Part shown: positions 10,004-54,380 of the stretch, one piece after another
Position numbering within the stretch: position 1 is the first letter of the stretch
Layout: every line of letters starts with the position of its first letter
DNA from: Thermoplasmata archaeon
Lineage (GTDB): Archaea > Thermoplasmatota > Thermoplasmata > Lutacidiplasmatales > UBA184
Reading direction: 5' to 3'
DNA: 64,000 bases
Assembly (NCBI GenBank): GCA_021809545.1
Contig: JAKAYL010000001.1
Coordinates: 21,561-85,560, forward strand
Notes under the pieces: model-generated
What the model saw: only the letters and a program-made list of their open reading frames with translations
Databases searched by the model: none
What the model was told of the DNA's origin: nothing
Position numbers and translations under genes: made by a program

Positions 10004-10438
10004 ATGACCCGGAGGGAAGAAGACCCCCACGATCGGGGAGACAAATCTCTCTTCCGCGTTCGAAGTTCCGCCCTTCCCTGGGTCACGGCGGCCGTCGTGG
10101 TGGCGTTGGTCTTCCTGGCGGTCTTCACCTTGGGCTTCGTGCTGATTGTCGAGAACCACGGGGACCACCTTCCAACGCAAGCGGCAAGTTCTGGCAATAG
10201 TACCTCCGCGCAGCAGGCCGCGCCGTCGACACCCCTTTACCAAATCTGGGATCCGATCGTCCTCCTGCTGTTCACCCTGGCAGTGCTCGCCGGTGCGGTT
10301 CGGGTTCTGCGTCGCCAACGGAAGTCTCTGACCCGAGTGTCCGAGAAGACCCCGGGCTCGGAGGCTCCTCAAGGGCACGGGGCAGATCCCGGCGTTCGTC
10401 CACCCAAGGAGGAGGATACTCTTGACCATCTCCTTTGA
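10004..10438 (+). CDS. Small two-TM membrane protein
   Basis: ATG at 10004 (the ORF-track start at 9998 is TTG). A TATA-like CATTATATC lies ~26 bp upstream, suggesting a leaderless transcript. Two hydrophobic helices. Confidence 0.45.
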   Translation: MTRREEDPHDRGDKSLFRVRSSALPWVTAAVVVALVFLAVFTLGFVLIVENHGDHLPTQAASSGNSTSAQQAAPSTPLYQIWDPIVLLLFTLAVLAGAVRVLRRQRKSLTRVSEKTPGSEAPQGHGADPGVRPPKEEDTLDHLL

Positions 10439-12770
10439 GCCGAACTCACCTGGGCCGAACACCGGCCCCTCCTCTCCCCCCGCGGCCGCAACCACAGATA
10501 CGGCGCCGTCCAAAGAGCTCCAACGATGGAGGGGACGGTGGGTGCGGCTGCGGATGCACACACCGAAGCACCGGTCGCGCCACGTGCTCTTCGCCCTGCT
10601 CCTGATCTTCGGTGGGATGGCGCTCGCGATCGGGAACGCGGCCACCCCCCAGTACAAGGTCACCCCGCTTGCCCCGTCGGGGTACTTCTTCTCCCTGGCG
10701 ATGGGAGGTAACACGATCTACGCCGCCTCCGCCAACTCCGGCTCCATCCTCCTGGAGAAGAGTTCGGACCGGGGCCTCGACTGGACCACGAGCGCGGTGC
10801 CGTACTCGCTCATCGCGAGCAACACCTCCAGTTGGACGTTCGCAGCGGTCGCGGTCGACGGGAAGAATGTGATCGTCGCCGCTGCTTCGAGCGGGAACTA
10901 TAACCAGAATTACGGGGGATACTACGGGTGCCCTTCCAACTCCACCATTCTCCTCGCCGCGAGCTCGGATGAGGGGACGACCTGGAAGAGCCAGACCCTC
11001 ATGACCCTCGGCGTTCAGGTGACGTCGATCCAAGTCAGCATGGATGGGAATTCCGCGGCGGTGGCGTGGCTGGGAACGACATACACTTCCTACTGCGATA
11101 GACTGGCGCCAAACGTCGCGGAGGCTGTCACCAGCCGGGACGGCGGACAGACCTGGTCCCTTCCGCCTCAGAACCTAACCCCGACCAATGCTGCGCTCTC
11201 CTCGAACCAGCACATCGAGATGGCGGCCAGCACCGAGGGGATCGTGGTCGCCTTCGAGTCCACCTCCCTCCAGAATTCCTACAACCTCCTGAACCTGTAC
11301 CGTTTGGACGAGAACGGGAGCGGCTACCTGTTCCACCCGGTCTACGGAGAGCTCCCCGCACCTTCGAGCTGGACGCTCCAGGGAGATCCCGGGACCTCGG
11401 CGTTCCTCCTCACCCCGAGCTATCTCATCCCGCTGGGACCCGGGGCCCTTTCCGGGATCCCCTTCTCCCAACTGCAGGAGGATAGCGGCGCAGTGGGAGT
11501 CCTTCCCAGTGTGATCTCCCTGGTACCCGCAGGATCCGGCGCCGGGGGAGACTTGGTGACCATCGCCGCCACCCTTCCGGGCGGTACCGGGGTAGACTGC
11601 TGGACCGTCAACCTTGGGACCCTGGCCATCTCCCAGACCTGCCACGTTACGCTCGGGTCGTTCCTGCTCCCCTCGAGCCAGAGCTTTCCCATCGTCTCCC
11701 TCCTGTACGGCGACGGTTGGTGGGTGGGCATCGGTGCGGGATCTGCTCCCTATGGATGGGGTGTAGGAGGGTACCTTGCCAGTTCACCCGCCGTGGGGAC
11801 TTCCGTGTGCTTCCAAGGCTGCCAGTCCGAAGAGGGATTGGTCGGATACTACTACACGGAGACGTCCACCCTCTCCCCATCCGTGGTGGCCGCGTTCGCA
11901 GTGTTCCTCGTGGTGCTGGGGATCGTTTGGATCTTCCTCGTCCTGAGGGCCGGGAAGAACATGCGGCCCGTAGGGCCCTCCTCAGGGGGAGCGAACGTTC
12001 CGCCCGGAGGGAATGCCCTAACCTACCCACGAACGGCGTACCTCCGGGGACTGCTCGTCTGGTTCCTCCTATGGTCGCCCCTGAGCATGCTTCTCTTCGC
12101 CCCCGGGCTCCAACAGAACAATCCCTTGATCCCATGGCTCATCGTCACCGAAGGTGTCTTGGGAGCCATCTTTGTGGCTCCCTTCCACTCCGGTGTTCGT
12201 CGATCCCTCGTGCTCGGCCTCCAGAAATACATCTTCCATAACCCCGACGGCGCCCGGGGGTTCGGCCGTGGGTCCCTGGCGGGAACTGAGGCCGGCATGG
12301 TCTCGTACTTCGCCTATGCCAGCTGGGTGGCGACCTTCTTCCTGCTGATTGCGGTCGGTCTGTTTGATACTACCTCCCCAGTTCAGGCTCCGCTCTCGAC
12401 AAGTGTGGGCGGTGGGACAGTCCTGAATGCGATGGCCATGTTCCTGGTCGTCATGGCTCTCGCCGTGGCGGGGCTCCGCGTCCTCTATCATGACGGCCTC
12501 GGCGCAGCCATGCGGGAAGCGACGGTCCTGATGCAAGGCCCTCCCCCTCCAGCCACGGGAAAATGGGACACCCTCCGCACCCGCGTGGGTGCCGCCTTGC
12601 TTCCCTGGAACCCCCTCGTCGGCCTCATCCTGGGCTGGGCCCTCGAGCCCGTCCTCTCATGGAGCCCCTTCGTTCTCGCCTTCCTCTTCCTGCCCGTGAC
12701 CTTGCTAGGAATGGCGATCCAGGCGGGTCTCCTTGGGAGAACCGCCTACAGCAAGCCCGTATGGGAGTGA
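10422..12770 (+). CDS. BNR/Asp-box repeat (sialidase-like beta-propeller) extracellular domain fused to a C-terminal polytopic membrane domain
   Basis: Signal-anchor sequence, Asp-boxes SSDRGLDWT, SSDEGTTWKS and SRDGGQTWS, then about 8 TM helices from ~aa 560. The start may instead be the ATG at 10554 (MHTPKH). Confidence 0.6.
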   Translation: MTISFEPNSPGPNTGPSSPPAAATTDTAPSKELQRWRGRWVRLRMHTPKHRSRHVLFALLLIFGGMALAIGNAATPQYKVTPLAPSGYFFSLAMGGNTIYAASANSGSILLEKSSDRGLDWTTSAVPYSLIASNTSSWTFAAVAVDGKNVIVAAASSGNYNQNYGGYYGCPSNSTILLAASSDEGTTWKSQTLMTLGVQVTSIQVSMDGNSAAVAWLGTTYTSYCDRLAPNVAEAVTSRDGGQTWSLPPQNLTPTNAALSSNQHIEMAASTEGIVVAFESTSLQNSYNLLNLYRLDENGSGYLFHPVYGELPAPSSWTLQGDPGTSAFLLTPSYLIPLGPGALSGIPFSQLQEDSGAVGVLPSVISLVPAGSGAGGDLVTIAATLPGGTGVDCWTVNLGTLAISQTCHVTLGSFLLPSSQSFPIVSLLYGDGWWVGIGAGSAPYGWGVGGYLASSPAVGTSVCFQGCQSEEGLVGYYYTETSTLSPSVVAAFAVFLVVLGIVWIFLVLRAGKNMRPVGPSSGGANVPPGGNALTYPRTAYLRGLLVWFLLWSPLSMLLFAPGLQQNNPLIPWLIVTEGVLGAIFVAPFHSGVRRSLVLGLQKYIFHNPDGARGFGRGSLAGTEAGMVSYFAYASWVATFFLLIAVGLFDTTSPVQAPLSTSVGGGTVLNAMAMFLVVMALAVAGLRVLYHDGLGAAMREATVLMQGPPPPATGKWDTLRTRVGAALLPWNPLVGLILGWALEPVLSWSPFVLAFLFLPVTLLGMAIQAGLLGRTAYSKPVWE

Positions 12771-13052
12771 GCATCTCCTCGAACTTGTGACGCTTGGCTA
12801 AGTTCGTACCGGTGGCAATTTCCAGCAATCCATCGTGAAGAGGGCCTTGGAGACTGAGGACCTCAAGAAGTCAGGTAGCTTTGAAAGGCAGAGATGCATT
12901 CCTCGTATTGGAGCCTATGCGCATAGTTGGGCGCGCATCGGCGCCATTACCGAAAGGGTGGACGGAACCGGCACCCCTTCCTGGGGTACCTCAAAGCGCG
13001 ACTTGCACTCTCCGAGGGTGACTCTTCAATCGTCAGCACAAATCATGAGACC

Positions 13053-13589
13053 CTAACCTGCACCAATTGTTACGTAGGTCCATTCCGGTTGCCGGTAATG
13101 TTTCTCCTCGACTCTCAACCCGAGAGTCCGTGCTTTAGCTAGAAGCTCTGCGTAGGCCGCTTGTGTAACGTAGGTCCGTACAGGGGCAAGTCCGAAGACG
13201 ATGTAGACGGATGCATGAGTGAGATCCCGAATGGACTTGTCCACCCCCTTCATGGTGAGGAGATGGAAGTGGGGATCATCGAACTTCATGACTCGTGGAG
13301 CTCGCCACGAGTATCGAAAGCTGACTTTGTCCATGTCAACTGCCATTATCGTTGCTTGAGGGAGGCTGAGGACGAAAACGAGTCCGAAAGCACCCGTAAC
13401 AAATAGGATGCTCCCAAGCCAAGCCAGAGACAGACTGTTACCCCAGAGATGATCAGAGGAGACGTGCATCACTGACAACGCACTGCCTCCAATAGCGAAC
13501 GCAAACAGGAAGGTTGCGATCCAGCTCCAGATGCGTGCCCTCTTTGCCATGGGCAGGGTCCGGATAAGTTTCAGATCGTAGGTCGTCAT
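13053..13589 (-). CDS. Membrane protein, two TM helices plus a ~100-aa soluble domain (low-GC islet)
   Basis: Clean ORF in an AT-richer segment. Hydrophobic helices at aa ~20-40 and ~55-80. Confidence 0.45.
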   Translation of the reverse strand: MTTYDLKLIRTLPMAKRARIWSWIATFLFAFAIGGSALSVMHVSSDHLWGNSLSLAWLGSILFVTGAFGLVFVLSLPQATIMAVDMDKVSFRYSWRAPRVMKFDDPHFHLLTMKGVDKSIRDLTHASVYIVFGLAPVRTYVTQAAYAELLAKARTLGLRVEEKHYRQPEWTYVTIGAG

Positions 13590-13817
13590 CTCCTATCCAA
13601 CAAGTGACTCCTCACTTCGAGCATTCTAATGATACCAGCGGTCGCAGGACGACTGCGATCTTGTCCTTGCCCAGAGAGATTAAACCATCGGATTCACTCC
13701 GTAAGGAGGGTTTGTAAAAAATCTTCCGTCCGACTCGTGGATTGTTTTCACCAAGACTGTCCCTGGGGAACTCTTTCGAGAGAGTGCTTCCAACCCGTGG
13801 GTTTCGACCATCAGGGG

Positions 13818-14423
13818 TTAATGCACTGTCGACCGATTGGAGTTGGAGACATTGTAGACTACCATCGCACCAAGGGTTCCAGCCATAGGTTTCGTTCGTT
13901 TCTCAGAGCCCACCAACTCATGGTGTCGACAGACATCCAATGTTGCAAGAAAGGCAGGCTCGGAAAGGGATGCGACTGGCCGCCAGGGAAGTTCCAGCGT
14001 CAACGCTTGGAGCCCTGGAACTGCAGCGTCCTCACGTCGGTCTTTCATGATGAACTTCCATTTTGTGCCGTTCCATGCAAGCTGATCAACCCTGCCGTTG
14101 GCATAGAACAGCGCCACCCCCGAGTCAGACACCTCCAAGCGCACGGGACCAGGCCCCCCGTAGACAACTGTCATAACGACGATGGAGACAAGGATAATGG
14201 GAGCAGACAGGAATGCGGCTAGACCTGCGGTTCGTGTGATCACGTCGCCCGTCATCATTTGTCGAATCAGAAAACCGTGTGGCCATTCCGCGTAAAACCA
14301 AAACAGGAAGAGTGCAACTCCACCTGCAAGTCCAATGTACGTCCCGAGTTGCTGGCCCTTATGCCATGCGGCCGACTCCATACTGATGTCGAACGACTTC
14401 CCCGCCAATGGACCCTCGCTCAA
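13818..14423 (-). CDS. Membrane protein, two TM helices plus a bacterial-PH-like soluble domain (low-GC islet)
   Basis: Same architecture as 13053..13589. The soluble part (VRLEVSDSGVALFYANGRVDQLAWNGTKWKFIMKD) looks PH/GRAM-like. Confidence 0.45.
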   Translation of the reverse strand: MSEGPLAGKSFDISMESAAWHKGQQLGTYIGLAGGVALFLFWFYAEWPHGFLIRQMMTGDVITRTAGLAAFLSAPIILVSIVVMTVVYGGPGPVRLEVSDSGVALFYANGRVDQLAWNGTKWKFIMKDRREDAAVPGLQALTLELPWRPVASLSEPAFLATLDVCRHHELVGSEKRTKPMAGTLGAMVVYNVSNSNRSTVH

Positions 14424-14647
14424 GATACCTCGTTGTCCACGTCGTAGATTCCTGTCCCAGTGGCAATGAGACCAATCCCAAAGATTACCAGCTCAAGGTA
14501 TCGGATTGGTGGAAGATCACTTCTGAAATTACGGAACATGTTGATGGTTCCATAGACACCCACGCCAACCATAAGATCGATGTCATTGAAGGTTTCCAAC
14601 CCATTCCGCACACTTTCCTCGATATCTCGACAAGCCCTGCCGCCCAA
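14420..14647 (-). CDS. Small two-TM membrane protein (75 aa)
   Basis: Overlaps the start of 13818..14423 by 4 bp, suggesting translational coupling. Hydrophobic. Confidence 0.3.
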   Translation of the reverse strand: MGGRACRDIEESVRNGLETFNDIDLMVGVGVYGTINMFRNFRSDLPPIRYLELVIFGIGLIATGTGIYDVDNEVS

Positions 14648-15420
14648 AACCTATGCCCTAATTGACATTGTCCTTACCGGCCACCTAACGAAGTTGCTGG
14701 GACTGGTCCCGGGACTCTCCCCCAGGATGACCGTATCGTGGAAACTCACGAAACGGATCCTGGCGGCAGGGCAGAGGAAGGCGGCCACCCTCAAGACAGC
14801 GGTCGGGCGGTCAAAGTGACCGGGATAATGGTCGCCACCGTCTACGCCGAAATGCCTGTGGTTGCGCACGCTCCGGCTGCTCAACCCCCCGTCCTCGGTG
14901 TTCCTGACAATGCTTCTGCCCCCTCTCTGTTTGACCAAATTACATCCCCGTGTGTGATAGCGCGTCCGCGTATATGCGCCTAGTGCAGACACGGGGCATG
15001 TTGCACCATACCGCATGCTACACTGTCTCTTCTAAACCATAGCGCCAAGGTCGAGCGGCGGCCACAAATCAATGATTGCCTGAACTGCGACCCTATCCCC
15101 GATAACGCCGCTCCTTCCCCACTAAGTTCTGGAAGTCTTACAAGGCCTCAACCAGTTGCGCCTTCTATGTCCGCAAGCTTCAGCATGGACATGTCGGGTT
15201 TGCCCCCATACACCGTTGCACTTCTTGCGCCATAGACCTGACTTAGTGGGTCGAAGGACTGACCTCTCGCGCTGTCGTTGAAAACAAGAAACTTGCCCCT
15301 CTCAATGCAAACCTGAGTTCTGGTCAACGCGCTCTCCTCCAAGAAGAGACGATTCCAAGCGGATACCTTGGTCAATTGCCGTGTCCTCTAGGTGAGACTT
15401 GGCCCACCTAAGCAGCAAAG

Positions 15421-15495
15421 CGGGCTCGCCGGGATTCGAACCCGGGTCGATGGCTCCGAAGGCCATCAGGATGGTCCAAACTACCCCACGAGCCC
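15421..15495 (-). tRNA. tRNA-Arg, anticodon most likely TCG; no encoded CCA
   Basis: RC reads GGGCUCG-UG-GGGU-AGUUUGGACC-AUCC-UG-AUGGC-CUUCGGA-GCCAU-CGAC-CCGGG-UUCGAAU-CCCGG-CGAGCCC-G. The acceptor stem is a perfect 7 bp, the T-arm is canonical (CCGGG/UUCGAAU/CCCGG), U33 and a purine at 37 are present. The anticodon arm is slightly non-canonical. Confidence 0.75.
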
Positions 15496-15517
15496 GGGCC
15501 GGTGAGGTCCGAGGCGG

Positions 15518-18500
15518 CTAAAGCTTCTCCTCGTGGTCCGGGTGGTCCAGATTCTTCAGGTTCGTCTGGGTCTGGGGGAAGAGCGTCAAGATGGAGTCCT
15601 CCAGGATCCGGACCCGTTGCTTCAGGTAATCCCCCACACCCTCCTGGGAGGCGAGCCCCTTCGAGAGCTCCAAGTACTTGGTGACCGCTCCCTCGTAGAC
15701 CGTGGGGGTGAGCTCCCCTCCGCAGAAGGCTTCCCCCACACGGGCCGTGCAGGTTGCGACGAGCGGGGGCCTTCGGTAGGACTCCCCGCACTTCCGGCAC
15801 CGGAACCGCTGCGTGGCGAAGCTCTTCATGTTCCCCATGATATCGGGGAGGAAGTGGTGGTTCAGGACCATGGCGATGGCGTCCCCGACGTCCACCGCGC
15901 TGATCTTCGAGACCACCGACATGGACTGGGCGACGACCTCGGCCATCCCCTCGCTGTCCCGATAGGCGGAGCGGGTGGGCCCTAGGGAGATGTCCGTCGT
16001 GTCGTGCGAGAAACCGTACCCGCGGAAGTGGCGGTCCGGGTTCTTCAGGTGCTTCCCCGCGGTCTCCATCAGGGCCTCGATGTCCTTGGGCCGGAGGCGG
16101 CGCTCCGCCGCTTCGTAGAACTCCAGGGGATAGCTCGACATGATGTCGACGTTCTGGGCCTCCTTGTCCACCTCCCTCAGGTCGAGCCTAGTCGTAAGGA
16201 CCAGGGGTTTGTCCATGAGGCCCCCCCGGTTGATGGGCAAGTACGCGAAGGAAAAGTTGAGGAGTCCGTCGAGAAGCAGGGTGACCGAATCCTCGTCGCC
16301 GTCGCAGTTCCTTCGCTTGGAGGCGTGGAAGGCGGGGTGGGCGAAGCACCCCTCGACGGGGGTATAGCCGATCAGCCGCGCGAGGACCCCGCCCGAGGTG
16401 TGCGGGGCGAGGGTGATCAACTGCTGTCCGATCAGGTCCTCCGGGGTTTCCGCCTCGTAGAACGGCTTGAGCCCGTAAAAGAGGGTCAGCTCGTCGTCGA
16501 CGTAGCGAGACAGCTTGAGGAGATAGTCCCCTCCCTCGTTGGAGAGGATGACGTCCTGGGGTTTGATCTCGACGATCTGTCGAGGTTCGGTGAGCACCGC
16601 TCCCTCGATGTCGAGGGTGTACCCCAGCTCGACCGCACGCTCCACGGAGAGTCCGATCTCCTCGGGGCGAAAGTGGGTGAGGGGGATGTCGGTGAGGTCG
16701 AAGCGGCTCGTCCCGTCCTGGTAGACATAGACCTCATGCTTTGCCCGCAGGATCCCCTTCTCGATGGGCTCCGGGGTCTTCTGGCGGGAGATGAGACCCC
16801 GGACCCCCTTGACCAGGGGGGGCTCCGTGATCTGGAGGTGGGCGCAGGCGTTCATGAACATGCTCCCGATGGGGATGGGAAGCTGCGCGTCCTTTCCCGT
16901 GGGCACCGTATGGGCGCCGCAATTGCAGAGGTTCCAGGGGGTCTGCTTGCCGCACTTCTCGCAGTGACGCACGCCCACCTCGACCTCCGCCTTCCCTCCC
17001 TCTCCTCCCGAGAGGAAGGCGTTGAGCGCCCGCATGGGTCCTCCGGCGGCCTCGACAGGGAAGAGGGAATGCACGGGGGGTTTCATCATCCGCAGGCGGG
17101 CCTTCTCCGGACGGCCCACGCGGGCTCCCACTCGGGAGGGGCCCCGGGCCTTGATCCGGATCCCTGCGACTCGGGAGACCTCCAAGAGCGCCTCCTGGGA
17201 ACCGCCCTCGATCTCGGCCTTCCGCATCAACCCTCCGTTCCGCTCCTCCAGTCCCAGACAGAGGAGGAAGGGAGAGGTGAGGAGCTTGTCGACGACGATC
17301 TCCCCGTTCCTTACGCTGTGCAGCAGCCCCAACGCGACGAGGAGATCCTTGATGGGTTTCTCCACCGGGAGGAGGAGGGCCCCGGAACCCACTTTGCCCT
17401 TCTTCTGTACTTCCTCGGAGAGGAATTTCACCTCCGATGCCTTGAGGTCGTGCCAGAAAAGGTTGAAGCGCGGGTGGAGGGGGACCATGTGGACGCGGGC
17501 GTCCTCGAGCGCCTCCTCCCAAGTGGGAACGACGGACCGCCGCCCGGGGGGGATCCCCTTCTTCCGCAGCTCCTCCAGGTGCCACGGGAGGGAGTAAGCC
17601 CCGGGGACCAACTGGTAGTTGTTCTCCTGGAACTCCCCGAAGGAGATCAGGATCTCCCCCAGGTCCACGATCTTCGTGACGGAGGGAAGGAGCGCTTTCG
17701 CCCTCTCCGCGTCGTGGATGGCCACAAGATCTCCGTTCTCGAGGAGCACGATCGGACCCTCGATGGTGTCGCAGGACGTCATCGCCGCGGCCTTGCCAGG
17801 ATACTCCAGCTTGACCTGGGTCCCGATGGCGACGAAGTCACCGAGGATCGTCATGGAGGCGGGATTGATGGAGGCGGCGGCGAGCCCGCTCGTGCGGGAG
17901 CGCCCGTACACGAGCCGGAACCCCCCCTTTCGGTGGGGATAGGAGAGGATGGGACGCCCCCCCACCGACTCTGCCAGGTACTTCGGGACCGGCCCCTCCT
18001 CGTTCGCCGGGGTCTTCCGGCCGAGCTGCTTGAGGAAGTCCCAGCCGTCGATGCCGAGCTTCTCCACGACGGAGCTCAACTTGCGAGCCTTGAGACACAG
18101 CCCCTCGGCGATGACGAGGCAGGCGCCGCCCCGGACCCCCGCGGTGTCCACCCGGCGGAGGTTCCGGAAGGCTGTGACCTCCTCGTCTCCCTCGGTGGCC
18201 TCCCCGTTGATGCAGACGGGAACCCCGCGCACCGCGACCTCGATCTCATCCGGGGTGGGGGAGTACTGCAGGTGCTGGAGGTGCTTGTAGAGGGGGATCT
18301 CCTCCTTGTAGCGGCCGATCTCCTCATCGAGGGCGACGTAGGGAGCGAGGTCGAGCTTCCGGCGCACGACGTCCGCTATGAGGACGGAAAGGGCCTGGGC
18401 CGTCCCCCCGGCCGCCCGGATCGGGCCGGCGTAGTAGAGGTCGACATAGGCTCCGTTCGGGTCCTCCCGGATCTTGGCCTGGACGAGCCCCTCGAGGGGG

Positions 18501-18838
18501 GCGACGAGGATCCCCTCCGTGAGGATCGCAAGCCCGGTCCGTACCGCCACGTCGAGGCGCTCCTCCCGGCTCCCCCGTGAGGTGTCCATCGCGAGCTCCT
18601 GGGCGACCGTGAGCGCGACCATGTCGCGGGAGATGTCCCGGGCGGAGAGTTCGCGGATGCGGTCCGCGACCCCCTCCACGTGCCATTTGGCGAGGAGTTT
18701 CTCCACCCGGCTCGCGAGATCGCTGGCGAGCGGGATCTCCACCTGGGTCTCCGGGTCGAGACCCTTGGCGCGGGCCGCCGAGGCGATCCCGTAGGCGTGC
18801 TTCACCCCCTTGTCCAGTTGGTTGAAGTACGCCTCCAT
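15518..18838 (-). CDS. DNA polymerase II large subunit DP2 (PolD catalytic subunit), intein-free
   Basis: 1,106 aa. The N-terminal MEAYFNQL...KHAYGIASAARAKGLDPE and overall length and conservation are typical of archaeal DP2. ATG at 18836-18838. Confidence 0.95.
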   Translation of the reverse strand: MEAYFNQLDKGVKHAYGIASAARAKGLDPETQVEIPLASDLASRVEKLLAKWHVEGVADRIRELSARDISRDMVALTVAQELAMDTSRGSREERLDVAVRTGLAILTEGILVAPLEGLVQAKIREDPNGAYVDLYYAGPIRAAGGTAQALSVLIADVVRRKLDLAPYVALDEEIGRYKEEIPLYKHLQHLQYSPTPDEIEVAVRGVPVCINGEATEGDEEVTAFRNLRRVDTAGVRGGACLVIAEGLCLKARKLSSVVEKLGIDGWDFLKQLGRKTPANEEGPVPKYLAESVGGRPILSYPHRKGGFRLVYGRSRTSGLAAASINPASMTILGDFVAIGTQVKLEYPGKAAAMTSCDTIEGPIVLLENGDLVAIHDAERAKALLPSVTKIVDLGEILISFGEFQENNYQLVPGAYSLPWHLEELRKKGIPPGRRSVVPTWEEALEDARVHMVPLHPRFNLFWHDLKASEVKFLSEEVQKKGKVGSGALLLPVEKPIKDLLVALGLLHSVRNGEIVVDKLLTSPFLLCLGLEERNGGLMRKAEIEGGSQEALLEVSRVAGIRIKARGPSRVGARVGRPEKARLRMMKPPVHSLFPVEAAGGPMRALNAFLSGGEGGKAEVEVGVRHCEKCGKQTPWNLCNCGAHTVPTGKDAQLPIPIGSMFMNACAHLQITEPPLVKGVRGLISRQKTPEPIEKGILRAKHEVYVYQDGTSRFDLTDIPLTHFRPEEIGLSVERAVELGYTLDIEGAVLTEPRQIVEIKPQDVILSNEGGDYLLKLSRYVDDELTLFYGLKPFYEAETPEDLIGQQLITLAPHTSGGVLARLIGYTPVEGCFAHPAFHASKRRNCDGDEDSVTLLLDGLLNFSFAYLPINRGGLMDKPLVLTTRLDLREVDKEAQNVDIMSSYPLEFYEAAERRLRPKDIEALMETAGKHLKNPDRHFRGYGFSHDTTDISLGPTRSAYRDSEGMAEVVAQSMSVVSKISAVDVGDAIAMVLNHHFLPDIMGNMKSFATQRFRCRKCGESYRRPPLVATCTARVGEAFCGGELTPTVYEGAVTKYLELSKGLASQEGVGDYLKQRVRILEDSILTLFPQTQTNLKNLDHPDHEEKL

Positions 18839-18858
18839 GATTAGGGATGATGCGCCCA

Positions 18859-18868
18859 GTTAAAATAA
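18859..18868. promoter_or_regulatory. Shared AT-rich TATA element (TTAAAATAAA) in the 53-bp divergent PolD/Dph2 intergenic region
   Basis: Lies ~24-28 bp from both the PolD ATG (18838, minus) and the Dph2 ATG (18892, plus), implying leaderless divergent transcripts. Confidence 0.4.
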
Positions 18869-18891
18869 ACTGAGCGCCTTGGAGCGGGGCG

Positions 18892-19896
18892 ATGGACCCC
18901 CACCGAACGTACGCGAACGTCGATGCGCGGCTCTTGGAGGACCTCCGAAAGGCCGGTCACCGGAGGATCGCCCTCCAGGTGCCCGCCGGGCTCCTCCCCA
19001 TGGCGCCCTCCCTCGCCCTCCAGATCGCGGAAGCGACGGGAGCGACCATCGTCACCCCCACCCGGGCCTGCTTCGGGGGCTGCGATCCCCCGAGCCCCGA
19101 GGAGACCCTGGGGGCCGAGGCGATCGTGACGCTCGGTCACGCACCCATCCTCAACATGACGGAACCCGTCCCCGAGTACTACGTGGAGATGCGCACGGAG
19201 ACGGGGGACGTCGAACGCCTCGCGGAGATCGTGGTCGCCCGAGGGCTCCCCCGGAAGCTGGGCCTCGTCGCCTCCGTCCAGCACTTGGATCTGCTCTCTC
19301 CCCTGATCGCCGCCCTCGCAAAGAAGGGGGTGACGGGGCTCGTCGGCGTGGGAGGCAAGCGCCTGGCCTACCCGGGGCAGGCGCTCGGCTGCAACTATAC
19401 GACGGCGACCACCCTCGAGAAGGACGTGGAGGGCTTCCTCTTCTTGGGCACCGGACGGTTCCACCCCATCGGCCTCTCCCTCTCGGTCGCAGTACCGATC
19501 TGGAGCCTTGATCCGCTCCAAGCGTCCCTGGAAGGGCCCTACGACCGGCAGAAGATGATCAACCAGCGGCTCCTCCTCATCGAGTCCGCGATGGATGCGA
19601 AGCGCTGGGGAGTGCTCGTCAGCACCTTCCCAGGCCAGATGCGCCGAGCGCTCGCCCAGCGCCTCGTCGACAAGGCCTTCGAACACGGGAAGGAGGCCTT
19701 CCTGCTCACCTTCGACCGGCTGGACGGACGGGACCTCGTAGGACGGAAGATGGATGCCTACGTCATCACCGCCTGCCCGCGGATCGCGATCGATGATGCC
19801 TCGCTCTACGACCGACCCATGCTCACCGCACCGGAGTTCCTCTCAGCCATCGGGGACCGCCCCCTCACCCCCTACCTCTTCGACACCTACGTATGA
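18892..19896 (+). CDS. dph2: 2-(3-amino-3-carboxypropyl)histidine synthase Dph2 (diphthamide biosynthesis)
   Basis: ~334 aa with three separated Cys-containing segments (ACFGGCD, GCNYTTA, ITACPRIAID) and ALQVPAGL, typical of archaeal Dph2. Confidence 0.8.
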   Translation: MDPHRTYANVDARLLEDLRKAGHRRIALQVPAGLLPMAPSLALQIAEATGATIVTPTRACFGGCDPPSPEETLGAEAIVTLGHAPILNMTEPVPEYYVEMRTETGDVERLAEIVVARGLPRKLGLVASVQHLDLLSPLIAALAKKGVTGLVGVGGKRLAYPGQALGCNYTTATTLEKDVEGFLFLGTGRFHPIGLSLSVAVPIWSLDPLQASLEGPYDRQKMINQRLLLIESAMDAKRWGVLVSTFPGQMRRALAQRLVDKAFEHGKEAFLLTFDRLDGRDLVGRKMDAYVITACPRIAIDDASLYDRPMLTAPEFLSAIGDRPLTPYLFDTYV

Positions 19897-20309
19897 GCCC
19901 CCTCCTGCTCCGTCTCCTAGGGATCGCCGCGATGGTCGGCGGGGTCGCCCTTTTGGCCCTTGCGTTCCTGACCGGAGGGGCGCACTTCGCGCTCGTCCTC
20001 ATCATCCCGGTCATCTATGGGAGCTCGGGGTACCTGGCGGGAGGCATCCTCCTCTTCTTCCTCGGGATCTTCGTGCTCTTCTGGGCCGCTGCGGAGTCCG
20101 TGAGCGAGGCCCCGGCCGCGCCCCTGCCCTACTCGTCATCTCCCCCCGGTTCTCCGGGTACCCCCTCCTCCCGGACGTCCTATGGGGGATTCCTTCTGAT
20201 CGGCCCCGTGCCGGTGGTTTTCGGAAACCGCCCCGGCTGGCTCCCGTATCTCATCGCCCTCGGATTCCTGACGGTCATCGCATTCCTCCTCTTCTTTGTC
20301 CTCTTCTGA
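19893..20309 (+). CDS. Small four-TM membrane protein
   Basis: Overlaps the Dph2 stop as ATGA. Four hydrophobic helices. Confidence 0.5.
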   Translation: MSPLLLRLLGIAAMVGGVALLALAFLTGGAHFALVLIIPVIYGSSGYLAGGILLFFLGIFVLFWAAAESVSEAPAAPLPYSSSPPGSPGTPSSRTSYGGFLLIGPVPVVFGNRPGWLPYLIALGFLTVIAFLLFFVLF

Positions 20310-20374
20310 ACCGGTAGGAGGACCCGTAACGCAGCCCTTATCCGGGGCCCCTCGTCGGTCTCGTGGAGCAAGGA

Positions 20375-21625
20375 ATGGCGGAAACTGCACCTCCGGGAAC
20401 ACGGCCCCGGTCCTCGATGGTGGCGCTCGCGCTCTACTCCCTCTTTGCCAGCAACCGTGGCAGCCTCTTCACCGTCTATTTCTCCCTCTACCTGGTGGAG
20501 GTGAAGGGGGCCTCCATCGCGGTCGCCCTCACCCTGATCTCGGTGGCTTTCGTCGGGGCAAGCCTCGTCGGGCCCTTGGCGGGCCGGCTCTCCGACCGGA
20601 CGGGACGTCGGAAACCCTTCCTTCTCGTGGGGGAAGGGCTCGCGCTCCCCCTCCTCCTCTCGATACCCTTTCTCCCAGGCTACCTCCCCGCGGGTCTGGC
20701 GTTCATCGCGGGCCAGGTCGCGGCGGCGATCGGGACCCCGGCCCTCAACGCCTACGTGGTCGACACCACCCAGCACGGGGAGCGGGGCCGCTGGTACGGC
20801 CTCCTGGGGGCGACGAACGCCATGGGGGCCGCGATCGGTTTCCCGATCGCCGGATACCTCATGGACCTCTACGGCTTCGAGGCGCTCTTCCTCGTCGCCG
20901 GGACCGTGATGCTCCTCGCCTTCTCGACGGTCCTCGTCCTCCTCCCGGACATCACAGTACCCGTCACCCGGGCCCCCCGGTCTCTGCGCGAGATGCGGAG
21001 TATCTCCATCTTCTCGTTCGCCGTTTCCATCCGGGCGATCGGGTGGGGGGCGGTCGTGACCTTCTATGGGACCTTCGCCTACCTTCTCGGGGCGAACGCC
21101 TTCGACATCAGTCTCATCGCGCTCTCCGGCTACGTGGTGGGGGCCATCATCTCCGTTCCCATGGGCCAGGCCGTCGACCGGATGGGCGCGCTCCGATCGG
21201 TCCTCCTCGGGGCGGCGATCAGCCTCGGGGCCATGCTCATCTTCCTCGTCACTACCACCTGGATCGAGCTCTTCCCCGCGCAGATCACCTACCGGATCGG
21301 TTTTGCGCTGATGAACCCGGCCATGCTCTCCTGGGTCGGAGGGATGGCCCCGACGGGGCGCCGCGCCGAGTACCTTGGTTTCTTCTCCATGATCAACTCG
21401 ACGCTCTGGAGCTCGGGGCCCCTGGTGGGGGCGGTGTCCTTGTCCTTGGGGGGATCCACCGGTCTTTTCCTCATGGCCACCGGAGCGACGCTGATCTCGG
21501 TGATCTCCCTCCCTCTCCTCTATCGCTCGGAACTTCTGGGTCCCCGACGAGCGACCCCTCCCGAAGTGGAAGGGCTTGCGCGAGCGCACCAACCCGACCC
21601 GACGAGCCGGCTGGCCAATCGCTGA
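20375..21625 (+). CDS. MFS transporter
   Basis: 12 TM helices with an MFS-like GxLaDRxGrR loop (GRLSDRTGRRK). ATG at 20375; the track start at 20363 is GTG. Confidence 0.8.
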   Translation: MAETAPPGTRPRSSMVALALYSLFASNRGSLFTVYFSLYLVEVKGASIAVALTLISVAFVGASLVGPLAGRLSDRTGRRKPFLLVGEGLALPLLLSIPFLPGYLPAGLAFIAGQVAAAIGTPALNAYVVDTTQHGERGRWYGLLGATNAMGAAIGFPIAGYLMDLYGFEALFLVAGTVMLLAFSTVLVLLPDITVPVTRAPRSLREMRSISIFSFAVSIRAIGWGAVVTFYGTFAYLLGANAFDISLIALSGYVVGAIISVPMGQAVDRMGALRSVLLGAAISLGAMLIFLVTTTWIELFPAQITYRIGFALMNPAMLSWVGGMAPTGRRAEYLGFFSMINSTLWSSGPLVGAVSLSLGGSTGLFLMATGATLISVISLPLLYRSELLGPRRATPPEVEGLARAHQPDPTSRLANR

Positions 21626-21673
21626 CTGGCACTGCGGGTGCGTGGAACGCGACTCCCAAGGAAAAGGAGTGGA

Positions 21674-22906
21674 CTAGGGGCGGATCGCTTGGGCGATCGC
21701 CAGGGCCCGCACCGTCTCCTGGACATCGTGCACGCGCACGATGTCCGCACCCCGCAGGGCCGAGAGCACCGCGGCCCCGAGGGATGCCTCTAGGCGCTCC
21801 GTCGCCATCGCCCCTCCCGTGAGAACTCCCAGGAAGGATTTTCGAGAGGCCCCGATGAGCACGGGAAATCCGAGGGAACGGAACTCCCCAGCGTGGTCGA
21901 TGAGCTCCACGTTCCCCTCGGGAGACTTTCCGAAGCCGATCCCGGGATCGACGATGAGACGGTCCCGCGGGATCCCGTCCGCCAGCGCTCGCCGGGTCCG
22001 CTCCGCCAGGAAGTTGAAGACCTCACCCCGGAGGTCCCGGTACTCGGTGTTCTTCTGCATGGTCGCAGGAGTCCCCCGCATATGCATCGCCACGGCCGCC
22101 GCCTCCCCGTCCCGGACCACGCGGCGCATGGCCGAGAGGGCGAGGCCGCTCACGTCATTCACCATCCCGACACCGAGCGCGAGGGCCTTGCGTGCGACCG
22201 AGGGCCGGCGTGTGTCGATGGACAGTGGGATCTCCACCTTGCGGAGGAGTCCCTCCAGCACCGGGAGGACACGACGAGCTTCCTCCGCCTCGGAGACGAA
22301 GCGGGCCGAGGGTCGGGTGGATTCCCCTCCGATATCGAGGAGGTCGGCCCCTTCTTGGACGAGACGGATCCCCTGAGCGATCGCGGCCTCGGTCGAGAAG
22401 AACTTGCCCCCGTCGGAAAAGGAGTCCGGGGTCACGTTCACGACTCCCATGACGAGCGTCTTCCCTCCCAGGCGAAGCCGCCGCCCTCCGGCCAGGCGCA
22501 GCCACCCCTTCTTCTGGCGATCGATGCTGCGGAAACCGGTGGCAAGGCTTTCGAGCGCAGCCCGAGCGGAGAGCGGCGCGCTCCGTGCCCGGCTCGCCAG
22601 CCGGGCGATCTGTCCGGAGGAGACAAAGGCGAGCACGCGCTGCGCTCCCGGTGCGGCGCTGAACGCCGAGGGGGACTTCCCGACCTCCACGCCCTCCTGG
22701 GAGAGCGTCTCGACCAGACGCTGGGCCACGAGAGGGGGAAGGGGATCCCAGACGAGGGGCATGTGCGGGGCGGTCGCCCCGAGCTCCCGCGGGGCGTTCC
22801 CCCGCAGGTTCAGGGCTGTCACAAACTCCTCGAACTCCCGTAAGGTGTTGAACTGGAGGAACCGAGCCGGTGCCCGTGGCGAGGTCACGGACCGGGGTGG
22901 AACCAT
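21674..22906 (-). CDS. folP: Dihydropteroate synthase (pterin-binding DHPS domain) with a ~130-aa N-terminal extension
   Basis: GVVNVTPDSFSDGG, LLDIGGESTRP, SIDT, MVNDVSGL, MHMRGTP and DPGIGFGK. The extension has no recognisable motif. Confidence 0.8.
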   Translation of the reverse strand: MVPPRSVTSPRAPARFLQFNTLREFEEFVTALNLRGNAPRELGATAPHMPLVWDPLPPLVAQRLVETLSQEGVEVGKSPSAFSAAPGAQRVLAFVSSGQIARLASRARSAPLSARAALESLATGFRSIDRQKKGWLRLAGGRRLRLGGKTLVMGVVNVTPDSFSDGGKFFSTEAAIAQGIRLVQEGADLLDIGGESTRPSARFVSEAEEARRVLPVLEGLLRKVEIPLSIDTRRPSVARKALALGVGMVNDVSGLALSAMRRVVRDGEAAAVAMHMRGTPATMQKNTEYRDLRGEVFNFLAERTRRALADGIPRDRLIVDPGIGFGKSPEGNVELIDHAGEFRSLGFPVLIGASRKSFLGVLTGGAMATERLEASLGAAVLSALRGADIVRVHDVQETVRALAIAQAIRP

Positions 22907-23106
22907 CGTCGGCCCCCCGGGTCCGTCCGGAGCGTCCCCCGGGTGCCCGCAGGGGGGAGGATCCCCTCGACGATCGCCATCGTGCGCTCCCCGCGGTCCG
23001 TCTCGATGATGGCGATCCGGTGAGGGGCGGCGAAGCCGGAGGGGGGAACGGTGAGCTCCGTGGCCGCCACGATGCGGCCCGAGACCAGCTCTTCCATCTC
23101 GGGCAT
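22885..23106 (-). CDS. DUF35-like OB-fold domain protein lacking the usual N-terminal zinc ribbon
   Basis: The pattern G-x-I-x-x-T-x-x-x-x-P-P-x-G-F-x-x-P-x-x-I-A-x-I-E-x-D-x-G matches the OB domain of thiolase/HMGCS-associated DUF35 proteins. 73 aa, ATG at 23104-23106. Confidence 0.35.
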   Translation of the reverse strand: MPEMEELVSGRIVAATELTVPPSGFAAPHRIAIIETDRGERTMAIVEGILPPAGTRGTLRTDPGGRRWFHPGP

Positions 23107-23112
23107 GGGAGC

Positions 23113-23928
23113 TCAGTGCCTGACCGGGGCGAGGAGGGTCGCCCCCCGCTCGAGGATGGCCACTTGCTCCTCCGGAAGGGCCTTGGGGAATATCGACAAG
23201 AGGAGGGAACCCGCAGAGCCCTGGGCGAGCTCGCGAGCCACGTCGAGGAGTCGGCGCACGTTCTTCACACCCGCTGCCTCCACCAGGGCCTCAACGGAGG
23301 GCAGGACCACTTTGTAGCCCTGTCCCTTCGCGAAGTGCTTTTCTATGAGGTAGCCGAGACGGTCAAGGTCCCCGGGGGAGACCACGTCCTCTCCCTCAAC
23401 CCGGGAGAGCTTGATGGCCTCAACGCCGGCAAGGCCATACTCCGGGAGGAGGACTTCGGCGGTCTGTGTAAGGAAGACCAGAAGACGCTGGGGAGGGAGC
23501 CCGGCAGCCCCCGCGATCTCGAGGAGATCCCGCTCCCTGCTCGTCTCGAGGAAGCAGAGCGGCTCGAAGAGGGGCCAGGCGGGGGCGGGCGGCGCCTGGG
23601 CGACAAGGATGCTCGCTGCGGTCGCGACCGGAGGCGCAGGGCTCGCGGTCGAAGGCTGGACCGGGAGGGGAGGCTGGGGAGGTGCCTGCGCTGCGGGCGC
23701 GGCAGGATAGAAGGCGGGAGCCTCGCCCAGCTTCTTGCGCTCCTTGAGGATCTTCTTGTTGAGGGAGCGGGCCGGAACGCCCACCGCGATCCCGAAGAGG
23801 GCTCCGAGGAACACGGCGAGAAAGACCATCGTGATCGGGTCCACATAGTTCAGGAACCACAGGAGGAGCGCCGTGATGATCCCGAGGACGACCCCGCTGG
23901 CCGCCGTGCTTCCAGCGCCCGAGGACAT
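23113..23928 (-). CDS. Membrane protein with a Pro/Ala-rich linker and a DUF835-like C-terminal domain
   Basis: Two N-terminal TM helices, then a linker (PAAPAAQAPPQPP). The C-terminal ~130 aa (VEGEDVVSPGDLDRLGYLIEKHF...KVVLPSVEALVEAAG...SLLLSIFPKALPEEQVAILERG) resembles DUF835. Confidence 0.45.
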   Translation of the reverse strand: MSSGAGSTAASGVVLGIITALLLWFLNYVDPITMVFLAVFLGALFGIAVGVPARSLNKKILKERKKLGEAPAFYPAAPAAQAPPQPPLPVQPSTASPAPPVATAASILVAQAPPAPAWPLFEPLCFLETSRERDLLEIAGAAGLPPQRLLVFLTQTAEVLLPEYGLAGVEAIKLSRVEGEDVVSPGDLDRLGYLIEKHFAKGQGYKVVLPSVEALVEAAGVKNVRRLLDVARELAQGSAGSLLLSIFPKALPEEQVAILERGATLLAPVRH

Positions 23929-52693: not shown

Positions 52694-52987
52694 TCAGAAC
52701 CAGGGGTCCCGGTGGAAGAGCTCGAGGAAGCGGGGATGCCCCTCGAGATCGGCCGGGACGTCCGGCATCACACAGAAGGGGGCCAGAGGCGCGGACTCGG
52801 GTCCTGGAACGGGGCCACCCCATTCCCGCAAGAGCTCCCGGGCCCTACGTCCCTGCTCGTAGCCTGAGATCCAGGCCGGGCTCTGATCCCTCAGCTGAAT
52901 CAGGGAACACGCGGTGGAACTCAGCCATCCCGCGTCGAATCCGCTATCCATCTCACTCTGCTCAAAGGTCTCCTCGGGCATCTTCAT
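52694..52987 (-). CDS. Hypothetical small protein (97 aa)
   Basis: High-GC codon usage like the host; no motifs. Confidence 0.3.
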   Translation of the reverse strand: MKMPEETFEQSEMDSGFDAGWLSSTACSLIQLRDQSPAWISGYEQGRRARELLREWGGPVPGPESAPLAPFCVMPDVPADLEGHPRFLELFHRDPWF

Positions 52988-53234
52988 GCCCTCCTTGGTG
53001 CGTCAGCTTTCGAAACGCTCCTGAAGTACCCTACTCCCGAAATGCATAAGAGCTTTGCTATAATCTAGCATGTCAACACCTGCCACCCTTCGACTGTCCT
53101 CAGGCATACGTTATGGTCAGGGGACAAAGTCACCCTTGTCGTCAACCACTCATCATGTGTGACCCCAACGATTCCGAAGTTGATGTGACTCTCCGGAACG
53201 GTTATTGGCCTGCAAGACTGTTTAACAATGAATC

Positions 53235-54110: not shown

Positions 54111-54344
54111 TCAGTGGCCCTTCGCCTTCAGGCGTTCGTGCTCCTTCAACACTTCCGTGCCCGACACGATCCTCTCGGTACGAAGTTGTCGCTCCAACTG
54201 AGCCTGCACCGTGGGGGATACGTAGTCCTGTGCCATGACTCGCAGTAGGTCGTCCCACGTCTGGGCACCAGTTTTCAACTCCCGGAGAAGTCGCACGGTG
54301 GAGGAGTGAACCGAGATGCTCGTGAGGGGATCTTGGGTCGGCAT
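54111..54344 (-). CDS. RHH (CopG/ParD-like) antitoxin
   Basis: 78 aa from the ATG at 54342-54344 (ISVHSSTVRLLRELKTGAQTWDDLLRVMAQDY). Its stop abuts the toxin start. A TATA and a palindrome lie upstream. Confidence 0.55.
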   Translation of the reverse strand: MPTQDPLTSISVHSSTVRLLRELKTGAQTWDDLLRVMAQDYVSPTVQAQLERQLRTERIVSGTEVLKEHERLKAKGH

Positions 54345-54361
54345 ACAATGAGAACAATCTT

Positions 54362-54380
54362 GACAATTGTATAAATTGTC
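54362..54380 (-). promoter_or_regulatory. Palindromic operator (GACAATT-N5-AATTGTC) overlapping the toxin-antitoxin TATA box
   Basis: A perfect 7-bp inverted repeat centred on GTATAAA sits ~25 bp upstream of the antitoxin ATG. This is the classic autoregulatory arrangement. Confidence 0.45.

Follow-up and report, generated by a model that had tools for sequence, protein, structure and literature searches.

The 'gene capture' of integrative elements at archaeal tRNA genes is said to have been described by She et al. in 2001, and small islets of the flexible genome, or 'dark matter islands', have reportedly been described for archaeal genomes. In the Thermoplasmatales, atypical gene clusters beside tRNA genes are common, and those of two to six genes have been put forward as what is left of older integrative elements (Cortez et al. 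2009, PMC2718499). Where the element carries an SSV-type ('suicidal') integrase, its gene is cut in two on integration and a fragment comes to lie at each border (PMC7253208, PMC8371274). The locus described here is a low-GC islet (12771..15419) in a 64-kb stretch of DNA (the window, 64,000 nucleotides) from an uncultured Thermoplasmata archaeon, in which a gene for a BNR-like membrane protein lies on the left and a tRNA-Arg(TCG) gene, followed by the gene for the large subunit of DNA polymerase II (PolD), lies on the right. We read the islet, with a probability of about 0.5, as a decayed integrative element captured by the chromosome.

The islet is the stretch of lowest GC content among all 2650-bp windows of the 64 kb, with a value of 0.541 against a mean of 0.658 (SD 0.021) in non-overlapping 2650-bp windows (z = -5.6). 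An earlier note on this DNA had claimed a fall from ~65% to ~50%; the drop itself is borne out by these values, and its lower figure is not, the islet mean being ~54%. In 300-nt windows between ~12800 and 15350 the GC content is mostly 0.49-0.56, both flanks having 0.61-0.72, and a 1-kb profile of the whole window contains only one further dip, at ~53 kb. The islet is a mosaic, since positions 14700-14900 reach 64-66% GC. Its tetranucleotide deviation (z = +5.3) lies above that of every other sampled window, so that the islet deviates strongly in both of the compositional plots which the note had suggested. The third codon positions of its ORFs have a GC content (GC3) of 0.53-0.59, against 0.80 in the BNR gene and 0.90 in the PolD gene. 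Change-point scans placed the edges at ~12760-12780 and 15410-15490, in agreement with the BNR stop codon (12770) and the 3' end of the tRNA (15420), the two features between which the note had placed the islet. Both the position of the islet, flush with a tRNA 3' end, and its atypical composition are those expected of a tRNA-integrated element.

The left flanking gene (10422..12770, plus strand) codes for a 782-amino acid membrane protein of host composition with weak BNR/sialidase-like signals, its Pfam matches lying below threshold. Its C-terminus is intact and could be aligned to its end with five homologues (four of 51-55% and one of 42% identity); on the three contigs read for homologues of 51-55% identity the downstream neighbours are unrelated and include neither a tRNA nor polD. 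On the right, the tRNA-Arg(TCG) gene (15420..15495, minus strand; ARAGORN; Rfam RF00005, 56.8 bits) is intact and has no intron. A gap of 22 nt separates it from the polD stop codon upstream, and its own 3' end forms the right edge of the islet; an Rfam scan of 12000-16000 found no other RNA gene. Next to it is the gene for the DP2 large subunit of DNA polymerase II (15518..18838, minus strand), which possesses PolC_DP2 domains (Pfam). Every relative whose PolD is at least 55% identical has the same tRNA after polD. A metagenome scan with the PolD C-terminus revealed no closer relative, its best matches being just 60% identical.

Three relatives with 76-77% PolD identity (L004, L009 and L010) are collinear with the window upstream of the tRNA, where ~10 kb of gene order, beginning with PolD, is kept on the polD side and breaks exactly at the tRNA 3' end. 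In these relatives the tRNA-Arg(TCG) gene is an integration hot-spot. L004 (contig JAJYXQ010000032.1) contains an island of at least 10 kb which starts 2 nt past the tRNA with the integrase in first place, a gene for a tyrosine recombinase at a distance of 23 nt from the tRNA (phrog_1 integrase, E = 1.6e-5; NCBIfam XerA-type, E = 1.3e-5), and which has 49-59% GC in all but one of its 500-nt windows. Its near-identical sibling L010 has no island, and housekeeping genes of host composition (CrcB, L37Ae, exosome subunits) follow the tRNA. Along the 13.4 kb that lead up to the tRNA the two differ only by scattered mismatches (in the first 13.5 kb no more than 257 positions, a count that includes the divergent DNA past the tRNA). 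From position 13300 at the latest they agree fully up to 2 nt past the tRNA, and beyond this point they are unrelated. L009 (Thermoplasmata MAG YF1.bin117) carries at the same tRNA an element of 4.8 kb, delimited on its far side by a perfect 20-nt copy of the tRNA 3' end, situated 4.8 kb away (E = 1.3e-5). Its integrase gene is a pseudogene, whose frame has three in-frame stops yet still scores 31.9 bits to Pfam Phage_integrase. Of the nine 500-nt windows that lie between the repeats, five have 52-55% GC, and near both ends the values resemble those of the host. The L009 element shows an intermediate state of decay. Together with the contrast between the L004 island and the empty site of L010, it supports the idea, already put forward in the earlier note, that this tRNA is a target of integrating elements.

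The DNA downstream of the tRNA is mutually unrelated in the window, L009 and L010; none of the downstream genes of L010 occurs anywhere in the 64 kb, and the islet has no similarity to the islands found at the same tRNA in relatives. None of the available relatives has both flanks, synteny past the tRNA being lost in each. Since no relative keeps the BNR-side flank, the empty site of this particular lineage has never been seen.

The islet was also searched for marks of mobility. A six-frame Pfam scan (E <= 10) gave no integrase domain in it, in keeping with what had been claimed from the ORF list. The L004 integrase, used as a tblastn query, found nothing in the islet and chance-level matches (E = 5-8) elsewhere in the window, and fragments of a split, SSV-type integrase were absent from every frame of 12771-15420. 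The named islet ORFs match no NCBIfam or PHROG family. Scans against PHROGs and PADLOC, and of IMG/VR with two islet proteins (i201 and i178, below), found no virus or plasmid hallmark, and there was no blastn match to phage and plasmid collections. With regard to an att site, exact k-mer scans and blastn-short located no second copy of any tRNA segment of at least 14 nt in the whole 64 kb. The longest exact matches are of 13 nt and both lie outside the islet, one of them inverted and inside polD, the other to an internal segment of the tRNA at ~34.1 kb. Gapped local alignments of the tRNA 3' half with the islet were no better than with shuffled sequence; for the spacer between the convergent BNR and i178 stops at the left islet edge (12771..13052, GC 0.55), where an att remnant was sought, the best score was 9 against a shuffle mean of 9.3. 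The lack of a direct repeat of the tRNA 3' end, reported by eye in the note, is thus upheld.

The view that the islet is a decayed integrative element or tRNA-targeted islet, which the note had offered, is therefore favoured by foreign composition, abutment on the tRNA and the elements of relatives, and is weakened by the absence of any mobile-element mark inside it. Because neither an integrase fragment nor an att duplicate is left, assignment to the integrative elements rests on context. The analysis established a composition which is foreign at synonymous sites as well, a position flush with the tRNA, a break in synteny exactly at that point, an integrase-led island and a decaying element at the same tRNA in sister lineages, and purifying selection on two genes. 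The DNA would have been inserted into the chromosome site-specifically, at the tRNA-Arg(TCG) 3' end, presumably through an integrase, so that the islet would once have held both an integrase gene and an att site. The element would then have been captured once decay, deletion or later rearrangement had removed the integrase as well as the tRNA-end copy at the distal side. What is left would be a small cargo still under selection, comprising two paralogous membrane-protein genes and a short ORF, together with ~770 bp of decayed DNA, the whole of it retained in every sampled copy of this species.

Three genes, all on the minus strand, make up the putative cargo. The protein named i178 (13053..13589; GC3 = 0.59), of 178 amino acids, has two predicted transmembrane helices and a C-terminal domain; it matched nothing in Pfam, PHROG, NCBIfam or PADLOC, and what supports it as a gene is its family membership. 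The 201-amino acid i201 (13818..14423) is predicted to contain two transmembrane helices followed by a beta-rich domain. AF2 models of both are too poor for a fold search: that of i178 (pLDDT 52) consists of two long helices, and that of i201 (pLDDT 46) of two helices, then six to seven strands and a helix. A homologue of i201, 79% identical, lies on contig L011 amid unrelated flanks. The third ORF, i75a (14420..14647), codes for a small hydrophobic protein of 75 amino acids and overlaps the start of i201 by 4 nt. It has a stop codon directly upstream, and only its C-terminal 45 codons are conserved with L011, the homology beginning at window position 14557. The L011 counterpart is longer, reaches the contig edge and has one extra hydrophobic segment. 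Since only these 45 codons are conserved, i75a may be the 3' remnant of a longer gene. The ratio dN/dS against L011 is 0.23 for i201 and 0.09 for the shared part of i75a, values which indicate purifying selection on both; it is this conservation which supports the two as genes. The i75a-i201 pair has 85% nucleotide identity with L011, with sharp homology breakpoints and unrelated flanks on either side, as would be expected of a mobile cassette.

The remaining ~770 bp beside the tRNA (14648..15419) contain no convincing gene. The ORFs called at 14651-15016 (minus strand), 14580-14819 (plus) and 15148-15375 (minus) are unsupported, no frame gave a family match, and the number of stops per frame (4-14, against 8.7 +/- 2.9 in shuffles) leaves none of them significantly open. 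A patch of ~250 nt (~14670-14900) has host-like GC content and third-position periodicity, the phase-specific GC reaching 0.75-0.77 at 14670-14850 and nowhere else in the region; it is probably a fragment of an older gene. This region (14648-15419) has no homology to L011.

An exhaustive HMMER search revealed that i178 belongs to a family of 25 cluster representatives, matched over their full length, all of 152-192 amino acids and with a best identity of 45%. The family is marked by an FDL motif at the N-terminus, a pair of hydrophobic helices and a conserved C-terminal domain, all of them present in i178. A word-index search had found nothing for i178, not even i178 itself; given the HMMER result, this was a failure of sensitivity. 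BLASTP did not connect i201 with the family. When the family profile was compared with i201 by hhalign, the C-terminal domains matched over 93 columns (probability 95.6%, E = 1.1e-8), which indicates that i178 and i201 are remote paralogues from one uncharacterised family. The usual place of a family member is directly downstream of a protein of ~2100 amino acids or of a free-standing copy of its C-terminal hydrophobic domain (L095, L098-L103, L104 and L106). No giant gene or fragment of one was found upstream of i178 or i201 in the window. The ~770-bp region was considered as a possible 3' remnant of a giant gene and discarded, since tblastn with four giants and with the separately encoded C-terminal domain yielded no match of E < 0.2; likewise i75a is not a recognisable homologue of the giants' C-terminal domain (hhalign probability 0.2%). 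Polymorphic toxin/immunity cassettes were considered as a lead only; in these a small immunity gene follows a toxin C-terminus which varies between strains, the N-terminal part being conserved. The giants show the opposite pattern, their C-terminal domain being better conserved (35-47%) than the whole protein (31%), and neither a toxin nor an immunity family matched.

The distribution of this family bears on the main rival explanation, in which the islet is a cassette of the flexible genome that owes nothing to a tRNA-targeting integrase. The i178/i201 family and its neighbours would recombine or transfer among Thermoplasmata, being low in GC wherever they settle, and the place of the islet beside the tRNA would merely reflect a rearrangement breakpoint at the tRNA 3' end, due for instance to recombination between tRNA genes or att sites such as has been described for Thermococcales. 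We regard this as possible, if somewhat unlikely. The relatives of i178 occupy chromosomal contexts without a tRNA, some after giant proteins and some between housekeeping genes, and ARAGORN found no tRNA in the scanned family loci of L095 and L097-L099. In L095, L104 and L106 the members lie in patches of 54-57% GC on contigs of 60-62% GC, and their GC3 there (0.57-0.60, against 0.66-0.84 in neighbours) is as low as in the islet. Because the family is low in GC in all the genomes examined, where no tRNA is near, low GC may travel with the genes rather than mark an element, and the argument from composition and position is weakened accordingly. The recurrence of the i75a-i201 pair in another context, the lack of any relationship between the sequences that follow the tRNA in the window, in L009 and in L010, and the islet's lack of an integrase and an att repeat would also suit such a cassette, as would the synteny breaks which integrase-driven inversions create at such sites in Thermococcales (PMC5495485). 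Against this, the tRNA 3' end is precisely where the low-GC block stops, and the block includes ~770 bp of gene-poor DNA outside the family module; two sister lineages have integrase-linked islands at the same position; and rearrangement by itself leaves the atypical DNA on the tRNA side of the cassette unexplained.

It is improbable that the region is old and vertically inherited, its low GC content being due to weakly expressed genes for small membrane proteins and to non-coding DNA. In favour of such stability, the islet is 100% identical in all three sequenced copies compared, the exact BNR protein occurs in 63 index blocks with the same neighbouring genes in all 24 contigs read, two islet genes are under purifying selection, and approximately half of the islet is non-coding DNA, which is usually lower in GC. 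However, neither amino acid composition nor non-coding status explains a GC3 which lies ~0.25-0.3 below that of the flanking genes, or the deviant tetranucleotides. The relatives at 76-77% PolD identity lack these genes at the site and within 10 kb of it, and the closest homologues, of 79% (i201) and 45% (i178) identity, are on short contigs of low GC among other neighbours. The earlier note had named orthologous content of low GC in related genomes as the finding that would point to an ancestral AT-rich region; it was looked for and not encountered. Nor is the islet an assembly artefact: one contig (L003) does stop exactly at window position 15421, the islet/tRNA junction, which might have hinted at a low-GC contig joined to the tRNA in assembly or binning, but the islet sequence is 99.98-100% identical across three independent assemblies, PolD, tRNA, islet and BNR lie together on single contigs in two of these, and the constancy of the BNR neighbourhood noted above makes a chimera hardly credible.

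A survey of tRNA-Arg after polD yielded a further pattern. In 28 of 28 more distant relatives the gene has an intron flanked by a bulge-helix-bulge motif, and this intron falls within the 20 nt which form the att core of L009. All 28 intron-bearing relatives lack an island and share at least one downstream gene; in the intron-less group three of four have islands and downstream synteny is lost. At the 55 more distant loci of 48-53% PolD identity blastn found no match to the tRNA-Arg, and in the 31 of these scanned with ARAGORN no tRNA-Arg follows polD. Perhaps the intron status of the tRNA decides whether it is a hot-spot. Perhaps, too, i178 and i201 are orphan partners of a two-gene module made up of the giant-protein C-terminal membrane domain and a small membrane protein. 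We consider these readings rather unlikely. Were the first true, the islet would owe its existence to an att site that has no such protection, and the pattern would lend comparative support to a proposal, reportedly by Randau and Soll, that tRNA introns block integration. Were the second true, the module would move as a low-GC cassette and the islet would be a store of orphan genes.

Most likely the islet is what decay has left of an integrated element, which is an ordinary kind of feature; by itself it is another example of foreign DNA at a tRNA, such as is already known, here in a poorly studied uncultured lineage of the Thermoplasmata. As a decayed integrative element it would stand at one end of a decay series at a single tRNA, which runs from an empty site through an integrase-led island and an att-flanked element with a dead integrase to a bare remnant of cargo, and which illustrates how archaeal chromosomes gain genes with few or no homologues. 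Two by-products of the analysis may carry more weight, namely the association, at the level of clades, of a T-arm intron in this tRNA with a lack of integration, and a previously undescribed family of small membrane proteins regularly paired with giant proteins.

Like SSV-type elements, the elements at this tRNA are archaeal, tRNA-targeted and easily trapped in the chromosome. Unlike them, the islet has no bordering integrase fragments, and the local elements do not appear to be of the split type, since in L004 one unbroken ORF next to the tRNA codes for the whole integrase. The L009 element resembles the islet in its tRNA and side, in size (4.8 against 2.65 kb), in low GC content and in the loss of integrase function; it differs in keeping its 20-nt direct repeat and a recognisable integrase pseudogene, and its genes, which include a winged-helix regulator, are unrelated to those of the islet. 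In comparison with captured or decayed elements at archaeal tRNAs in general, the islet lacks an integrase fragment and an att duplicate, and its far flank is syntenic with no relative. What it has in common with them is its deviating composition, the small size of its genes and their few or missing homologues, and its place right against the 3' end of a tRNA; at that tRNA, moreover, sister lineages have elements that carry an integrase or the decayed remains of one. As a short cluster of fast-evolving, narrowly distributed and functionally uncharacterised small membrane proteins it also resembles the 'dark matter islands'. That category is descriptive and not mechanistic, whereas for the islet there is a candidate route of entry, integration at a tRNA, which is supported by the neighbouring lineages.

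The low-GC islet occupies window positions 12771-15419. To its left lies a plus-strand gene for a 782-amino acid membrane protein with weak BNR-like signals (10422-12770), and to its right the 3' end of a minus-strand tRNA-Arg(TCG) (15420-15495), the sole RNA match in an Rfam scan. The latter is followed by polD, encoding the DNA polymerase II large subunit (15518-18838, minus strand), whose stop codon lies 22 nt beyond the tRNA. The nearest relatives of the window are metagenome-assembled genomes labelled Thermoplasmata archaeon, and contig DAIFGF010000001.1 (596 kb) of assembly GCA_027382145.1 matches it. A gene for a replication factor C subunit lies left of approximately 2690 (1-266 in L001, an assembly of the same sequence); precomputed Pfam matches place an intein-splicing domain in its 705-amino acid product.

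The drop in GC content between the BNR stop codon and the tRNA, reported in an earlier note, was confirmed by GC, third-position GC (GC3) and change-point scans, the last placing the edges at 12760-12780 and 15410-15490. Measured over 300 nt at a time, GC is 0.61-0.72 outside and mostly 0.49-0.56 within approximately 12800-15350. The sliding-window and tetranucleotide comparison proposed in that note likewise set the islet apart: its GC (0.541) is the minimum among all 2650-bp windows of the 64 kb and 5.6 SD under the mean of non-overlapping windows, and its tetranucleotide deviation is the largest among the windows sampled (z = +5.3). The islet ORFs have a GC3 of 0.53-0.59, the BNR gene one of 0.80 and polD one of 0.90; since synonymous sites are shifted, amino acid content and non-coding DNA do not explain the low GC. 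The BNR protein can be aligned with its homologues to the last residues, and the left edge therefore falls just past an intact gene. Within the islet, 14700-14900 has a GC content of 64-66% and a third-position GC of 0.75-0.77. Approximately 250 nt at 14670-14900 thus look like a piece of an older, compositionally host-like gene, which makes the islet a mosaic; neither ORF over this patch, 14651-15016 (minus) or 14580-14819 (plus), has homologues. The window contains a second low-GC patch (~52950-53850 and 54150-54600, GC 0.49-0.54) with no adjoining tRNA. Its 151-amino acid ORF (53235-53690, plus) has a C-terminal zinc-ribbon-like motif which is sub-threshold in Pfam.

All credible islet genes are on the minus strand. 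The product of i178 (13053-13589), a 178-amino acid membrane protein, found no match in a word-index search, and exhaustive HMMER searching recovered 25 cluster representatives of 152-192 amino acids, which align over their full length with up to 45% identity. The profile of this family matches the 201-amino acid membrane protein i201 (13818-14423) with 95.6% probability (E = 1.1e-8), and the islet therefore contains two remote paralogues in tandem. The start of i201 is overlapped by a 75-codon ORF, i75a (14420-14647). These two recur in an ENA contig (L011) at 85% nucleotide identity, the homology setting in abruptly at window position 14557 and ending near the i201 stop, with unrelated flanks. 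The dN/dS ratios, 0.23 for i201 and 0.09 for the 45 shared codons of i75a, indicate that both are proteins under selection. The i75a counterpart in L011 is longer, reaching the contig edge, and in the window a stop codon directly precedes i75a, which may therefore be the 3' end of a formerly longer gene. The islet proteins had no match in Pfam, PHROGs, NCBIfam or PADLOC, and structure models of i178 and i201 were poor (pLDDT 46-52), showing just a pair of long helices and, after them, a beta-rich region. The 770 bp at 14648-15419 contain no supported gene; in none of the frames are stops significantly depleted, and none shows a family match.

Elsewhere, members of the i178 family occur in ordinary chromosomal settings. 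At L095 (3615-10543) and L104 (1689-8537) the gene starts 18 and 4 nt, respectively, after a gene for a protein of ~2100 amino acids. At L098-L103 the preceding sequence is the C-terminal part of a gene of this type, and at L106 (7454-8528) a free-standing 178-amino acid copy of the giant's hydrophobic C-terminal domain, between housekeeping genes. The giant proteins have no Pfam domain, and their C-terminal domain is rich in glycine and alanine. The small membrane proteins i178 and i201 are thus members of a family not described before, usually encoded 4-18 nt after a giant gene or a free-standing copy of its C-terminal domain. ARAGORN found no tRNA at the loci scanned, L095 and L097-L099. 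At 17624-20157 of L095, a second giant protein with PKD domains is followed by a 196-amino acid low-GC membrane protein gene (GC3 0.56) and an IS4-type transposase. In all of the genomes just described, GC3 of the family gene is 0.57-0.60, irrespective of that of the host genome, versus 0.66-0.84 for its neighbours; low GC therefore accompanies the family itself. Its members may often be transferred out of a shared pool, or a different constraint may be at work.

Scanning a genome collection with PolD retrieved three relatives at 76-77% identity (L004, L009 and L010) and four loci at 57-58%, all seven having tRNA-Arg(TCG) directly after polD. The window is collinear with the relatives for ~10 kb on the polD side, up to the tRNA only. 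In the 13.4 kb leading up to the tRNA, L004 and L010 differ by no more than scattered mismatches; from position 13300 at the latest the two sequences coincide, and this identity ends 2 nt beyond the tRNA, where all resemblance is lost. L010 continues with host GC and CrcB-like, ribosomal protein L37Ae-like and exosome-subunit-like ORFs (named from translations), none of its downstream genes occurring in the window. In L004 a 513-amino acid tyrosine recombinase (phrog_1, E = 1.6e-5; NCBIfam XerA-type, E = 1.3e-5) starts 23 nt after the tRNA, in an island of at least 10 kb with a GC of 49-59% in all but one 500-nt window. This island (13443-23318) also encodes an HFX_2341-like/DUF6293 protein, weakly similar to CRISPR-associated Rossmann-fold families, a dCTP deaminase-like protein and a 491-amino acid protein with a weak M48-peptidase signal; the C-terminal region of the integrase is partly duplicated at 18413-18613. 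In L009 (MAG YF1.bin117), a block with a GC of 52-55% in five of nine 500-nt windows ends 4.8 kb away from the tRNA in an exact copy of the tRNA's last 20 nt (E = 1.3e-5), just inside which lies an integrase frame (Pfam Phage_integrase, 31.9 bits) with three in-frame stops. The DNA downstream of the tRNA is unrelated among L009, L010 and the window. No sequence similarity links the islands to one another or to the window, which indicates independent arrivals. A decay series at one tRNA is plausible: empty site, island with intact integrase ORF, att-flanked element with dead integrase, and the window remnant. The BNR side gives nothing to compare with: on the contigs inspected for three BNR homologues (51-55% identity), the adjoining genes are unrelated to those of the window, and neither a tRNA nor polD is nearby.

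We give a probability of about 0.5 to the islet being a decayed, captured integrative element, which would have integrated at the tRNA-Arg 3' end and then decayed to a bare remnant. In its favour are the position, composition and sharp synteny break, the fact that sister lineages carry, at this very nucleotide, two integrase-linked islands, and the gene-poor DNA beside the tRNA, which is atypical too and lies outside the i178-family module. Against it, the cargo family lives elsewhere in ordinary chromosomal settings and has low GC everywhere, and internal hallmarks are all absent. As stated in the earlier note, there is no integrase (six-frame scan of the islet) and no direct repeat of the tRNA 3' end: exact matches to the tRNA anywhere in the window reach at most 13 nt, one of this length lying inverted inside polD and another matching an internal tRNA segment at ~34.1 kb, and gapped alignment of the tRNA 3' half with the islet scores no higher than shuffled sequence. 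Nor were relatives of the islet found in IMG/VR or the phage and plasmid collections. With this evidence on the two sides, a flexible cassette set at a rearrangement breakpoint is a possible, more doubtful reading, and an ancient, vertically inherited region is unlikely. That the islet/tRNA junction is an assembly artefact is highly improbable, since three independent assemblies agree at 99.98-100% identity over the islet and two span both junctions. The L003 contig (GCA_023379235.1, JAMCUZ010000084.1) ends at window position 15421, at this junction, possibly a sign that strains in that sample differ there. The islet is thus real and was correctly described; its interpretation as a decayed integrative element or tRNA-targeted islet is partly supported, by position, composition and the islands at the same tRNA in relatives, the internal hallmarks being absent.

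More distant relatives carry an intron in this tRNA. At all 28 loci with 55-60% PolD identity and a tRNA found (L005-L008 and 24 of L015-L039), the match ends at approximately position 61-65 and resumes 25-40 nt later, as in L016 (11123-11223). ARAGORN miscalls the 3' end of such genes. Six of the seven loci folded (L005, L007, L016, L020, L030 and L031) give a cloverleaf whose T-arm has two 3-nt bulges split by a 4-bp helix, the archaeal bulge-helix-bulge splicing motif; the seventh, L036, differs. The insert follows TTCGAAT, within the 20-nt att core of L009. None of the 28 has a low-GC block after the tRNA, and each shares at least one downstream gene with L016; the intron-less loci (the window, L004, L009 and L010) have islands in three of four cases and no shared downstream genes. 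At the outgroup loci this tRNA does not occur at this position. The two groups are two clades and hence effectively a single contrast, which agrees with the proposal, credited in PMC3293823 to Randau and Soll (2008), that introns at att sites shield tRNA genes from integration. In Thermococcales, integrases can produce synteny breaks at such sites (PMC5495485), and PMC2718499 describes small clusters of atypical genes beside tRNAs as frequent in Thermoplasmatales and as possible remnants of integrative elements.
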